A stretch of 64,000 nt of DNA, taken from IMG/VR virus record IMGVR_UViG_3300025648_000012, positions 64,001 through 128,000 of that record; one strand, 5' to 3'. Of the stretch, positions 29,810 to 37,748 are shown piece after piece. The position numbers and the translations under genes were made by a program. Position 1 is the first letter of the stretch. Each line of letters begins with the position of its first letter. The notes under the pieces are model-generated. The model saw only the letters and a list, made by a program, of their open reading frames with translations. It was not told where the DNA came from and ran no database searches. The DNA comes from a virus.

Positions 29810-30373
29810 ATGTCAAACCGCGTAATAAAAGAACCAAAGTTTACTATTACAAAAGATATACACCTATCTTATGGTCATAGGGTATGGACTCAGGAATTAG
29901 ACCCAGAGTTTGCTTTAGATAACTCGTGCGTATGTAAGCATTTGCATGGACATTCTGGAACTATAACGGTTGGACTTAGTTCAGAAAAAGTAACAGATGG
30001 CTTTGTAACTGACTTTAAGCACTTAAACTGGTTAAAGCAGGCTGTGGATACTCACCTTGACCACAAGTTTATTATTGATAAAAACGACCCACTATATATG
30101 TATTTAGTAGGCTGTGCTGGCTATGAAAAGCAACCCTGTATGTTAAACGAAAAAGAATTTTTTGGAGGCGCATATTCCTTAGTCTCTCCTTTTGCCTTAA
30201 ACAATTCACTTACAGAATTCGTTGAGAGCTTTACCGTTGTGAACTTTGTTCCTACATCTGAAAATTTAGCTAAATGGATTTTTGAAATAGTGGAAAAGAA
30301 AATGGAAAGATTAGCTACAGTAGATTTTGTTACATGGAAAGAAACAGAAAAAACTTCTGCAACTTATAGTTAA
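29810..30373 (+). CDS. queD: 6-carboxy-5,6,7,8-tetrahydropterin synthase
   Basis: YGHRV, CKHLHGH, DFKHL, LDHKF, PTSENLA, WKETEKT. Confidence 0.93.
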   Translation: MSNRVIKEPKFTITKDIHLSYGHRVWTQELDPEFALDNSCVCKHLHGHSGTITVGLSSEKVTDGFVTDFKHLNWLKQAVDTHLDHKFIIDKNDPLYMYLVGCAGYEKQPCMLNEKEFFGGAYSLVSPFALNNSLTEFVESFTVVNFVPTSENLAKWIFEIVEKKMERLATVDFVTWKETEKTSATYS

Positions 30374-30390
30374 ATATATTATAGATTAAA

Positions 30391-30771
30391 ATGAAAAAAA
30401 TCTGGATTACATTTAGTAAGCATGGATTACATAAATACCCAAATGCTCCGGTTGAGGTTGGATATTTAGCTAATGAGCATAGACACCTATTCAAGTTCAA
30501 AGTAACAATTGAAGTTTCTCACTTAGATAGAGAATTAGAATTTCACATGGTACAAAACTATTGTGAAGGCATGTACAGTTGTGGGGTTTTAGAACTGAGT
30601 AATAAATCCTGCGAAATGCTAGCAGTCGAGCTTTTAGACAAGCTTCACAAAAAGTATACGTATTTTCCTAATTCAGAGGATTTTAGATATCTCGAGGTTG
30701 AAGTTTCGGAAGATGGAGAATGCGGGGCCATTTGCGATGTAACTGATTTACTTAGGAAAACTTTAGAATGA
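30391..30771 (+). CDS. dpdL: QueD-like T-fold protein, probable CDG decarboxylase (DpdL)
   Basis: LANEHRHLF fits the LxxxHRHxF signature I recall for DpdL. Also RELEF, SCEMLA and EVSEDGECGA. Context is folE/queD/queE without queC. Confidence 0.72.
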   Translation: MKKIWITFSKHGLHKYPNAPVEVGYLANEHRHLFKFKVTIEVSHLDRELEFHMVQNYCEGMYSCGVLELSNKSCEMLAVELLDKLHKKYTYFPNSEDFRYLEVEVSEDGECGAICDVTDLLRKTLE

Positions 30772-31802
30772 ACATTCTTGTAACCGGTGGGTTTGGGTAC
30801 ATTGGATCTAACACTGTTGTAAAATTAATCCAATCAGGTCATAAGGTAGTTATTCTAGATAACTTAGTTAATAGTTTTTTAACTACAATCTCAAAAATTG
30901 AATCTATAACTAAAAAAGGGGTGCCTTTCTTTCTTGAGGATTGCGGTAATACTTCCGTTGTCATATCCATTCTAAAAGAATATTCTATTGATACCGTAAT
31001 CCATTTTGCTGGTCTAAAATCAGTAACAGAGTCTGTGCTTAAACCCATTGAATACTATAATAACAATGTTGCCGGTACCCTATCGGTGCTTTTAGCCATG
31101 AAAAATACTGGTGTAACTAGGTTAGTATTTAGCTCTTCAGCTGCGGTTTACGGAATTACAGAAGAATCACCAATAACAGAGTTGCATAGTTGCAACCCAG
31201 TAAATTCATACGGTCAATCTAAATACTTAGTTGAAAAAATTCTTAAGGATGTTTGTACAAGCTCTCCCATGTGGAAAGTATTGTGTTTACGGTATTTTAA
31301 TCCCATTGGATCTGATACTACAGCTAGTTTGGGAGATAATCCAAAAAGCCAAACTAAAAATTTAATTCCATTGCTATGTAGAGTAGCTCAAGGTGAAATT
31401 CCCCATGTAGACGTATACGGAGATAACTTTAATACTCGGGATGGTACTGGAGTTAGAGACTATATTCATGTTGAGGATGTAGCTCAAGGCCACTTGGCTG
31501 CTCTTACTGCCCTTAATAACGTTGCTGGGTTTGATGTAGTTAATTTAGGAACTAGTAAAGGCTACACAGTATTAGAAGTAATAAAAACCATGGAAAAAGT
31601 TTCTAAAAAGTCAATACCATTTCAAATTTGCTCAGCTAGGCGAGGGGAGATAGATTGTTATTATGCGGATGTTACAAAAGCAAATAACCTTTTGGGGTGG
31701 AAAGCAACGCATGATTTAGAATCAATGTGTAGCTCAGCTTGGCATTTTGCAAACAATAAGGGATTAACTCATGCAAACAATAGTTCACTCCAGTATTCCT
31801 AA
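30768..31802 (+). CDS. galE: UDP-glucose 4-epimerase
   Basis: TGGFGYIGS, HFAGLKSV.ES, SSSAAVYG, YGQSK, LRYFNP, DGTGVRDYIHV. Confidence 0.95.
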   Translation: MNILVTGGFGYIGSNTVVKLIQSGHKVVILDNLVNSFLTTISKIESITKKGVPFFLEDCGNTSVVISILKEYSIDTVIHFAGLKSVTESVLKPIEYYNNNVAGTLSVLLAMKNTGVTRLVFSSSAAVYGITEESPITELHSCNPVNSYGQSKYLVEKILKDVCTSSPMWKVLCLRYFNPIGSDTTASLGDNPKSQTKNLIPLLCRVAQGEIPHVDVYGDNFNTRDGTGVRDYIHVEDVAQGHLAALTALNNVAGFDVVNLGTSKGYTVLEVIKTMEKVSKKSIPFQICSARRGEIDCYYADVTKANNLLGWKATHDLESMCSSAWHFANNKGLTHANNSSLQYS

Positions 31803-32640
31803 ATATGCAGTAATTGGTACTAATAGCGCTGGAAAATCTACAGCTACGTATTTAGCCTGTGGTATTCTAAAACAACAAGGAATAAACGTTGATGGAATTT
31901 TTCAACAGGATAGGCGCAGACCATTTCCTACAGAGTTAATGGGAAAGTACTTAGAAGCTCATTATTGGCAGTTAGCTAATTTAATTTCTGTTGAGTCTTA
32001 CTTTTCTCTAATACAGTCTGGTACAGACGTTATTTTATCCGATCGTTCAGTATTTGACTTATTTGAGTACGCTAAATTTCAATGGCCTCAATCTATTGGG
32101 GCTCTCGAGCAATTTATTTTGACCTATACTGCTACTTATACCAAGTTATTTTATTTGAAACCTATAGAGTATGTTGATGATGGTCAAAGACCTCCCAAAG
32201 ATTTTGTTAATGCTGTTGACGTTTTAATTGAAAAAGACTTACCGGTTAATACAATAAGAATCCCTTTACAAAGAAATTCTGGAGTAAACCCTGGTGAGTT
32301 CATAGCTCAAAGAATAGCTTACGATTTGAAGTTAGCTAAATTAGGTTTAAACTCTATAAATTCTCGCCTTATTGGCAGTAGAGGGTGTATGACTCACCGC
32401 ATAGATTCTGATTGGGATATTGTAACTACAGTAGGTGAAATTGAAAAGAATCCTTTGCTAAACTCTATTGAAAAAAGAAAAGATAGTGGAAAAAATTCTA
32501 ATTCAAGAGGTCTGCTTGGAAAAGCTCCAACTCCCTGTTATATAGTAAAGAGTTCAACTTTTGACATTATAGTTCATGAGACCATTGAAGAAGTTATACT
32601 GTACGACTCAATAACTCCTTATACGGAAATTTTTCTATGA
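31771..32640 (+). CDS. P-loop nucleotide kinase (AAA_28/dNMP-kinase-like) fused to a Pol-beta-type nucleotidyltransferase-like domain
   Basis: GTNSAGKST, LSDRSVFD and DDGQR, then C-terminal IGSRG......SDWDIV. Confidence 0.65.
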   Translation: MQTIVHSSIPKYAVIGTNSAGKSTATYLACGILKQQGINVDGIFQQDRRRPFPTELMGKYLEAHYWQLANLISVESYFSLIQSGTDVILSDRSVFDLFEYAKFQWPQSIGALEQFILTYTATYTKLFYLKPIEYVDDGQRPPKDFVNAVDVLIEKDLPVNTIRIPLQRNSGVNPGEFIAQRIAYDLKLAKLGLNSINSRLIGSRGCMTHRIDSDWDIVTTVGEIEKNPLLNSIEKRKDSGKNSNSRGLLGKAPTPCYIVKSSTFDIIVHETIEEVILYDSITPYTEIFL

Positions 32641-36621: not shown

Positions 36622-36622
36622 T

Positions 36623-36856
36623 ATGAAAACACAAAAATTTAGTCACAGAGAATTAGTAAAGTCCAAGTTAGAGCAATTAGGTCGAGTTGATACCGCTTTA
36701 GCCAAATCTTTAGGAATTTCAAGGCTACCTGTTCAGATTGAAAGGTTAAGAAAACAAGGTATGAAAATTAACTTGATCCGTGAGTATACAGGGTCAATGT
36801 ACTATATGTTAGAAAACTATACGCTCAAAAAAGGTGCTCAAAATGACTTACAGTGA
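36623..36856 (+). CDS. Small helix-turn-helix DNA-binding protein
   Basis: TALAKSLGISRLPVQIERLRKQGMKI. Confidence 0.7.
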   Translation: MKTQKFSHRELVKSKLEQLGRVDTALAKSLGISRLPVQIERLRKQGMKINLIREYTGSMYYMLENYTLKKGAQNDLQ

Positions 36857-37064
36857 AAATAACAAGTACATAGATGTTCTGAATTCCTACATTAAGGAAG
36901 ACACTGCATTAGTTAATTACTATAATAAAACTTTGAAGTTGCCTTCTGGAGAAATAGGAAATAGATTACTTTTAGTGGAAACTAGACTACTTAATTTGTC
37001 AAAACTTGTTTGTGAGCTTATTACAGAGCTAGGAACAAATAAACAGTTACCAAAATACTACTGA
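36843..37064 (+). CDS. Hypothetical protein
   Basis: About 73-aa ORF in the operon. Confidence 0.5.
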   Translation: MTYSENNKYIDVLNSYIKEDTALVNYYNKTLKLPSGEIGNRLLLVETRLLNLSKLVCELITELGTNKQLPKYY

Positions 37065-37073
37065 GGAATAAAA

Positions 37074-37748
37074 GTGGCTAATACTGACGAAGCATTAGGA
37101 GCGGAAATAGGAACAATTTTAAGAAACAAGGGAATAGAAACTCCCATGTTTGGATCGAACTACCTGGACAACTTTTCAAAAATAGAAACACTGGCTCCAT
37201 TAGTTGAGTCCATTCTAACAATTCTTGGAATGGACTTGAAAGATGATTCTCTTAGGGATACGCCAAAACGTGTTTCTAAGATGTTTATTGAAGAATTGTT
37301 CTATGGGCTTGACTACAGCAACTTTCCGGCATGTACAGCCGTGGATAATAAGATGCACTATGACGAAATGCTACTTGAGGGAGGTATAACGGTAAACTCT
37401 CAGTGTGAGCACCACCTTGTACCGTTCAAAGGACATGCGTACGTTGCATATTTACCAGCCAATAAAGTATTGGGGTTATCCAAGTTTAACCGAATAGTAG
37501 ATTTCTTTAGCAGAAGGCCACAAGTTCAGGAGAGGCTAACAGTACAGATTGGTACCTCCATACAGCATATTGTAGAAACGCCAAATGTTGCGGTTGTACT
37601 AGAATGTTCTCATTTTTGTGTTCAATGCCGTGGAGTAAAAGATTCTGATAGTTGGACTGCAACGTCAATGCTCGGGGGTATTTTTAAGGAACAAGCGGTT
37701 AGAGTTGAGTTGTTTTCTCTAATAAACGGTAGACGAGGGAGGCATTAG
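37074..37748 (+). CDS. folE: GTP cyclohydrolase I
   Basis: DTPKRV, CEHHLVPF, GLSKFNR, RPQVQERLT, HFCVQCRG. Confidence 0.96.
   Translation: MANTDEALGAEIGTILRNKGIETPMFGSNYLDNFSKIETLAPLVESILTILGMDLKDDSLRDTPKRVSKMFIEELFYGLDYSNFPACTAVDNKMHYDEMLLEGGITVNSQCEHHLVPFKGHAYVAYLPANKVLGLSKFNRIVDFFSRRPQVQERLTVQIGTSIQHIVETPNVAVVLECSHFCVQCRGVKDSDSWTATSMLGGIFKEQAVRVELFSLINGRRGRH

Follow-up and report, generated by a model that had tools for sequence, protein, structure and literature searches.

A QueC-less deazaguanine gene run in a phage genome

We analysed a gene run at positions 29810-37748 of a 64,000-nucleotide stretch of viral DNA (the window; bases 64,001-128,000 of IMG/VR record IMGVR_UViG_3300025648_000012), in which genes for the synthesis and insertion of 7-deazaguanine bases are interleaved with genes for a glycosyltransferase and a sugar-nucleotide epimerase. 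The record is 142,721 bp (142.7 kb) long and carries direct terminal repeats, indicating that the genome is closed; its GC content is 35-41% and nearly all genes lie on the plus strand. The genes of the run are co-directional, and neighbours overlap by 4-38 nucleotides (nt) or are separated by short gaps. The run and one gene upstream of it encode the following products, with lengths in amino acids (aa) and match scores as E values unless given in bits:

29810..30373, plus strand: QueD (6-carboxytetrahydropterin synthase); PTPS 4.1e-24, phrog_2389 2.4e-32, CxxxHGH motif
30391..30771, plus strand: DpdL-type T-fold protein; phrog_17812 1.6e-29, LANEHRHLF = LxxxHRHxF
30768..31802, plus strand: GalE, UDP-glucose 4-epimerase; TIGR01179 389.7 bits against a cut-off of 262.3
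31771..32640, plus strand: P-loop kinase-like protein, 289 aa; AAA_28 7.5e-5 (below cut-off), phrog_2107 thymidylate kinase 2.8e-6
32637..33974, plus strand: guanine transglycosylase of the tRNA-guanine transglycosylase (TGT) fold, DpdA-like large type, 445 aa; AlphaFold2 model and motifs
33937..34443, plus strand: 168-aa protein of a conserved family; no Pfam, PHROG or NCBIfam match
34440..35618, plus strand: GT-B fold, GT4-family glycosyltransferase, 392 aa; Glycos_transf_1 34.9 bits against a cut-off of 26.4
35620..35811, plus strand: 63-aa open reading frame (ORF); ORF call only, no homologue in related loci
35821..36621, plus strand: QueE (7-carboxy-7-deazaguanine synthase); phrog_2076 1.2e-40, Radical_SAM and Fer4_12 above cut-off
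36560..36856, plus strand: 98-aa ORF with a weak winged-helix match; HTH_39 E = 0.0023, below cut-off, not conserved in relatives
36834..37064, plus strand: 76-aa ORF; ORF call only
37074..37748, plus strand: FolE (GTP cyclohydrolase I); GTP_cyclohydroI 1.5e-56, NF006824 270.9 bits against a cut-off of 202
18864..19358, plus strand: 6-oxopurine-type phosphoribosyltransferase (PRTase), 10.5 kb upstream of the cluster; Pribosyltran 2.7e-11, above cut-off

An earlier note, made from the letters of the window alone, had named the genes of the run from queD to folE, and each was recovered at the same coordinates on the plus strand. The note had also seen no queC or queF in the window; a search of the whole 142,721-bp record found neither QueC nor QueF there either, and MazG and a second TGT were likewise absent from the whole genome. 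The gene identities, together with the genome-wide absence of QueC and QueF, support a QueC-less, DpdL-type 7-deazaguanine DNA-modification module.

FolE, QueD and QueE convert GTP to 7-carboxy-7-deazaguanine (CDG), an established chemistry of these families. The protein encoded next to QueD carries the sequence LANEHRHLF at residues 26-34, which matches the published DpdL signature LxxxHRHxF that stands in place of the CxxxHGH of QueD (PMC10516641). It is 55% identical to DpdL of Acidovorax phage ACP17 and 30% identical (8e-11) to DpdL of Cellulophaga phage phiST, and the family has 19 invariant residues, with H30, H32 and F34 invariant in 17 members including that of phiST. At least 580 stretches with DpdL are present in IMG/VR. 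The protein is predicted to convert CDG to 7-deazaguanine by decarboxylation, a role that is a prediction only in the source paper as well (PMC10516641).

Linkage of the glycosyltransferase to DpdL

The earlier note had made its case for a sugar depend on co-occurrence of the glycosyltransferase with dpd genes in relatives, and this association, examined in three ways, was found consistently. In cultured phages of unrelated genera (Acidovorax ACP17, the PA5oct group, Burkholderia BCSR5, Xanthomonas BUDD and X1, and cyanophage BUCT-ZZ01), homologues 22-51% identical to the window glycosyltransferase lie near DpdL, and the gene order differs among these phages. In ACP17, PA5oct and BUCT-ZZ01 at most one gene separates the glycosyltransferase from DpdL; in BUDD, X1 and BCSR5 the distance is 1.6-2.8 kb. 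Two further samples were built from the neighbourhoods of IMG/VR loci. The glycosyltransferase-seeded set consisted of 80 IMG/VR loci, the window region, 4 cultured-phage loci and 5 TGT-family loci, giving 90 regions, with proportions also stated per 88 loci. The DpdL-seeded set consisted of 80 loci retrieved with a DpdL alignment, which avoids seeding by the glycosyltransferase; 40 of them have at least 5 kb on both sides. The sampled viruses are related, so that locus counts do not represent independent events.

Across the 88-90 mostly glycosyltransferase-seeded loci, DpdL was present in 86, QueE in 80, GalE in 77, FolE in 66, the phosphoribosyltransferase in 57 and the 168-aa family in 56. 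When seeding was by DpdL, the glycosyltransferase was found in 35 of the 40 well-flanked loci, 33 of which also had a large TGT-like gene. Three of the five well-flanked DpdL loci that have no glycosyltransferase carry a small, phiST-type DpdA3 directly after DpdL, and the glycosyltransferase and this small DpdA3 occurred together in no locus examined. Over 144 viral loci, among which 67 different gene orders occur, the glycosyltransferase and DpdL lie at a median distance of 1,178 bp and never more than 4.4 kb apart. Linkage that persists through such rearrangement, and through divergence to approximately 20% identity, would be hard to explain unless the glycosyltransferase shared a function with DpdL, and on this comparative evidence the glycosyltransferase is not a passenger of the module.

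The five contigs that carry the transglycosylase subfamily of the window separate the contribution of DpdL from that of the transglycosylase. Two of them, 110 and 139 kb long (L086 and L087), have QueC beside the TGT gene and carry neither DpdL nor the glycosyltransferase, whereas the remaining three, like the window phage, which is of this kind, have no QueC and carry both DpdL and the glycosyltransferase. Because QueC replaces DpdL and the glycosyltransferase in L086 and L087, one transglycosylase subfamily serves two different base chemistries, and because of the same alternation the glycosyltransferase follows DpdL rather than the type of TGT. The large TGT type had been considered as the determinant of glycosyltransferase presence and was rejected, since the contigs of the same subfamily that have QueC have no glycosyltransferase. 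Moreover, DpdL occurs without the glycosyltransferase, as in phiST, whereas the glycosyltransferase essentially never occurs without DpdL; this asymmetry puts the role of the glycosyltransferase at the DpdL step or later. As a side observation, QueC in one of the two QueC-bearing contigs lies inside a 445-aa ORF.

Among the donor-site residues of the glycosyltransferase family, R205, K210 and E297 are invariant, and at least 95% of the close subfamily keep D289, which lies seven residues before E297 in an EX7E-type motif. Of 18 family members, 13 match the Glycos_transf_1 domain. Similarity to solved GT4 enzymes is confined to the C-terminal half, and the N-terminal acceptor half is like none of them. 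The TTG start codon is backed by the conserved K2 and Y5. At E <= 1e-10 the glycosyltransferase has over 7,600 matching proteins, counted regardless of genomic context. Isoelectric point, tried as a guide to whether the acceptor is DNA or a small molecule, was not discriminating. A second, weakly Glycos_transf_1-like ORF of 348 aa (E 2.7e-5, below cut-off) lies outside the window, at 5641-6687 of the genome on the minus strand; profile comparison ruled it out as a relative of the cluster family.

GalE aligns over its full length with E. coli GalE (3e-90) and has a tyrosine aligned with E. coli Y299, a position that we take to be the gatekeeper marking epimerases of the non-acetylated uridine diphosphate (UDP)-hexoses UDP-glucose and UDP-galactose. 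Its frequency depends on the seed: common around the glycosyltransferase, it is found in only 10 of 41 DpdL-seeded loci. The epimerase named in the earlier note is therefore present, with an equivalog-level match, but is not a fixed part of the module; it is a common but optional accessory, and because it is optional, the sugar may differ among phages. In the PA5oct cluster, a 172-aa ORF (EST35_0320) groups with the GalE family by BLAST and may be a truncated epimerase remnant.

Transglycosylase, accessory proteins and setting

No Pfam model matches the TGT-like protein, even at E = 10, and PF01702 matches nothing in the genome; the family is too divergent for this model, as DpdA3 and DpdA4 also are (PMC10516641). 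Its AlphaFold2 model was of high confidence (predicted local distance difference test, pLDDT, 89.5; predicted template modelling score, pTM, 0.91), and the top 50 Foldseek matches in the PDB were all tRNA-guanine transglycosylases, with E values of 1e-9 to 2e-7 and template modelling (TM) scores of 0.44-0.62. In 30 homologues, D119 (DSGGFQ) and D285 (SDS) are invariant and D153 (LDLP) is conserved in at least 90%, and the zinc site CxCxxC...H (C319, C321, C324 and H343) is invariant. The family profile matches the archaeosine TGT 1iq8 at 2e-8, the motifs falling on DSGSFQ, LDIP and DSAsY and the zinc site on CSCPVC...HN of that enzyme, whose D95, D130 and D249 we take to be the catalytic and base-binding aspartates. 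With the TGT fold, the catalytic aspartates and the zinc site all intact, the identification as a dpdA-like TGT is upheld. Searches of PDB sequences with phmmer returned nothing useful for this protein or for the glycosyltransferase. Comparison of the family profile with phiST DpdA3 by hhalign gave a probability of 0.15%, with a single sequence on the phiST side, and the two proteins differ in length (445 against 259 aa); the window transglycosylase probably represents a different subfamily. From the phage context and the lack of a tRNA-related partner we infer that it exchanges guanine in DNA rather than in tRNA.

The 168-aa gene, whose co-occurrence with the module the earlier note had left to be checked, belongs to the conserved core by its presence in 56 of the 88-90 loci. 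Its family is widespread and stand-alone (799 representative clusters in a profile search) and has conserved acidic and aromatic motifs. Neither this protein nor its 250-316-aa relatives gave a Pfam match, an alignment-based model (pLDDT 70) had no PDB match above Z 4.3, with QueE as the top match within noise, and its neighbours in the ESM Atlas were of low confidence only. The phiST protein CGPG_00066, similar in size and position, was considered as a relative and showed no detectable relationship. Homologues of approximately 250-290 aa (L008, L016, L019-L021, L024, L030, L031, L063 and L082) have a low-complexity C-terminal extension with a conserved LGLD...LKPE and a lysine-rich end, which hints at nucleic-acid contact; the window copy is without this extension.

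The phosphoribosyltransferase gene, which the earlier note does not name, lies between ThyX and an SbcC-like gene. Its product scores 43.5 bits with Pribosyltran against a cut-off of 26.3; among NCBIfam models it comes closest to xanthine PRTase, at 35.5 bits and below the cut-off of 138. The PRTase encoded within the BUCT-ZZ01 cluster shares 26% identity with it (1e-11). Members of the family are part of the cluster in BUCT-ZZ01, in PA5oct and in most metagenomic loci, occur elsewhere in the phiST genome, and are absent from ACP17 and BCSR5. On these relationships the window PRTase belongs to the system, and because phiST has it too, it accompanies the DpdL-type pathway generally rather than the glycosyltransferase. 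One possible role is to return the guanine freed by base exchange to GTP, from which the pathway starts; another is to make deazaguanine nucleotides; PRTases that use CDG and phosphoribosyl pyrophosphate take part in tubercidin and toyocamycin biosynthesis. The kinase-like protein fits either role. Its N-terminal half is AAA_28 or NadR-RNK-like, with AAA_28 proteins as structural neighbours in the Atlas (TM 0.54-0.59), and its C-terminal 130 aa have no assignable match. Thus, of the kinase/nucleotidyltransferase assignment in the earlier note, the kinase part is backed by weak AAA_28 and thymidylate-kinase matches, and nothing was found for a nucleotidyltransferase. The gene is rare, occurring in 3 loci, with homologues that adjoin DpdL only in BCSR5 and L085.

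The module lies within the replication and recombination region, between primase/DnaB and sigma factor/SSB/UvsX. Genes for a family-A DNA polymerase, ThyX, the phosphoribosyltransferase, an SbcC/Rad50-like protein, a clamp-like protein, helicases, DnaB and primase are found upstream, and genes for a sigma-factor-like protein, SSB and UvsX downstream. The sigma-factor-like gene (window 38177-39073; phrog_17569) is directly 3' of FolE and is followed by a large SSB gene (39092-40609; phrog_15004). With primase immediately 5' and the sigma-factor-like and SSB genes 3', the cluster sits among early or middle replication genes. Promoter and terminator scans of the operon gave results at or below chance level and thus set no limits to the operon. 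In 50,697 phage records the cluster had no megablast match.

A candidate sugar-bearing deazapurine and its alternatives

Guided by these identities and by the linkage, we propose the following pathway. FolE, QueD and QueE convert GTP to CDG, which, without QueC, would pass to DpdL and yield 7-deazaguanine. The large TGT-fold enzyme would then swap guanine in phage DNA for the deazapurine, as the DpdA precedent and its intact active site suggest. GalE would convert host UDP-glucose to UDP-galactose, and the GT4 enzyme, of the retaining type, would place a hexose on the deazapurine, either while this is still a free base or once it has been inserted into DNA; both of these steps are suggested by the linkage. 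The 168-aa protein would probably share in hexose transfer, and the PRTase and the kinase-like protein would recycle released guanine into GTP or make deazaguanine nucleotides. The product would be hexosyl-7-deazaguanine in virion DNA, where it would block restriction. Speculatively, decarboxylation would leave a nucleophilic C7 as the most plausible acceptor, with N2 as the alternative. Because the freed C7 is an electron-rich pyrrole carbon that faces the major groove, a C-glycoside is conceivable on chemical grounds.

We find the locus best explained as a 7-deazaguanine DNA-modification system of the DpdL type to which a sugar-transfer branch has been added, although we hold the case for this explanation to be evenly balanced; a sugar on the deazapurine is likewise the best reading, and one to which we give about half of our confidence. 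The fuller proposal, that virion DNA of the window phage and of other phages with DpdL and GT4 carries a hexosylated 7-deazaguanine, conceivably as a C7 C-glycoside, and that the 168-aa protein is a new enzyme or adaptor, is possible, with the balance tilting slightly against it. The conserved donor-site residues, the tyrosine gatekeeper of GalE, the location in the replication module and the restriction-resistant DNA of PA5oct, which carries the module (PMC12191111), speak for a DpdL-type system with a sugar branch. An added sugar step is favoured over a role in base synthesis because phiST makes its modified base without the glycosyltransferase or the 168-aa protein. The sugar-decorated deazaguanine suggested by the earlier note is thus plausible: its comparative linkage to DpdL stands, whereas the sugar on the base or in DNA and its acceptor atom are proposals and decarboxylation by DpdL is a prediction.

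Several observations weigh against this proposal. 7-Deazaguanine has no hydroxyl or side-chain amine, which makes the acceptor a guess. The glycosyltransferase family is acidic (median isoelectric point 5.1) with no DNA-binding feature detected, and no longer or fused glycosyltransferase forms linking it to a partner were found, which is weak evidence. Most DpdL-seeded loci are without GalE, and the non-independence of the sampled loci limits what their counts can carry. The literature searched yielded no published DNA chemistry for any phage with this module, and the dpdL and dpdA pair of ACP17 gave no 2'-deoxy-7-deazaguanosine (dDG) in E. coli, for which the authors suspected missing enzymes (PMC10516641).

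Some of these observations would also fit a final base that is plain 7-deazaguanine or CDG, with the glycosyltransferase making a transient glycosylated intermediate or carrier, or glycosylating a partner protein, for instance the 168-aa protein or the transglycosylase. The acidic glycosyltransferase and the lack of an obvious acceptor group on 7-deazaguanine agree with this, as does the need for extra factors implied by the failure of DpdL and DpdA alone in E. coli, and phiST, the only DpdL phage with measured DNA, has plain dDG in place of all G (PMC10516641). However, since phiST does so without the glycosyltransferase and the 168-aa protein, neither is needed for dDG itself; many loci have a GalE of their own, which indicates that sugar is used in bulk, and END nucleases reported to be specific to hypermodified DNA target PA5oct (PMC12191111). 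We consider a plain base rather unlikely. The glycosyltransferase and GalE could also be unrelated to DNA and modify host envelope glycans or virion proteins, their proximity to the module reflecting shared early expression. GT4 enzymes and GalE are typical of surface-polysaccharide pathways, and phages do carry such genes. Nevertheless, the adjacency to DpdL outlasts 67 gene orders and divergence of the glycosyltransferase to 22% identity, the glycosyltransferase goes missing together with DpdL where QueC takes over, the cluster is located in a replication module, and the N-terminal acceptor half has no counterpart among solved GT4 enzymes, all of which make a function away from DNA highly improbable.

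The earlier note had also raised a nucleotide-level route, in which, as we would now word it, the PRTase ribosylates CDG or 7-deazaguanine, kinases and ribonucleotide reductase turn the nucleotide into a deoxynucleoside triphosphate for incorporation by the polymerase, and the TGT-like enzyme and the glycosyltransferase act on nucleotides or only polish the product. This route gains from the 6-oxopurine-type PRTase, present in 57 of the 88-90 loci and in the window genome, phiST and PA5oct, from the kinase-like gene within the cluster, from the replacement of all G by phages with DpdA3-type enzymes, and from the CDG-using PRTases of the tubercidin and toyocamycin pathways. It is set back by the lack of the PRTase in ACP17 and BCSR5, the restriction of the kinase-like gene to 3 loci and the absence of a MazG-type dGTP-clearing enzyme from the window genome. 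Furthermore, almost every locus retains a TGT-fold enzyme whose active site is complete, and salvage of exchanged guanine accounts for the PRTase equally well. We regard the route as improbable.

If the sugar-on-deazapurine reading is true, the product would be the first glycosylated purine analogue in DNA and a new class of hypermodification, possibly made by unusual glycosyltransfer chemistry. To our knowledge, the sugar-bearing bases of DNA are pyrimidines, and the 7-deazaguanine marks known in DNA, eight in number, bear small groups at C7; the literature searched contained no account of DNA with a glycosylated deazaguanine. The base pathway is known, as is phage glycosyltransferase action on 5-hydroxymethylcytosine DNA, and their combination on a deazapurine appears undescribed. 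We believe that this analysis adds the DpdL-only sample, the dichotomy between phiST-type and glycosyltransferase-type loci, the alternation of QueC with DpdL and the glycosyltransferase in one TGT subfamily, the GalE gatekeeper and the association of the PRTase with DpdL.

The alpha- and beta-glucosyltransferases of phage T4 act on 5-hydroxymethylcytosine DNA as a counter-defence. They resemble the proposed system in function, as phage GT-B enzymes that use a UDP-hexose on a non-canonical DNA base, a likeness that does not come from sequence comparison; in T4, however, the sugar goes to the hydroxymethyl group of a pyrimidine that is synthesised as a nucleotide, whereas here it would go to a deazapurine without a hydroxyl. 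In galactosyl- and mannosyl-queuosine of animal tRNA, a hexose from a nucleotide sugar is placed on a 7-deazaguanine derivative, and one of the enzymes is GT4-like; that sugar sits on the cyclopentenediol in tRNA, whereas the window phage cannot make preQ1 or queuosine because it has no QueC or QueF. Cellulophaga phage phiST (PMC10516641) likewise lacks QueC and has FolE, QueD, QueE, a DpdL with LxxxHRHxF, a TGT-superfamily enzyme and a PRTase elsewhere in its genome. It differs in its 259-aa DpdA3 (CGPG_00065), to which the 445-aa window enzyme has no detectable profile match, and in its MazG-like gene, which the window genome lacks, and its whole record is without a Glycos_transf_1 match, a 168-aa family member or a GalE.

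The module is abundant, and the cultured phages that carry it include PA5oct, a therapy-relevant jumbo phage of Pseudomonas aeruginosa. PA5oct has the large TGT-like gene, GT4, DpdL, PRTase and QueE all adjacent, as a counterpart of the window cluster, and differs in a glycosyltransferase of 24% identity, a TGT of another subfamily and only the 172-aa GalE-like fragment. Its DNA resists enzymes with G in their sites and is deduced to carry a modified G of undefined chemistry, and the phage is targeted by END nucleases said to sense hypermodified DNA (PMC12191111). A hexosylated deazaguanine, if present, would account both for the modified G of PA5oct and for its sensitivity to defences that sense hypermodified DNA.

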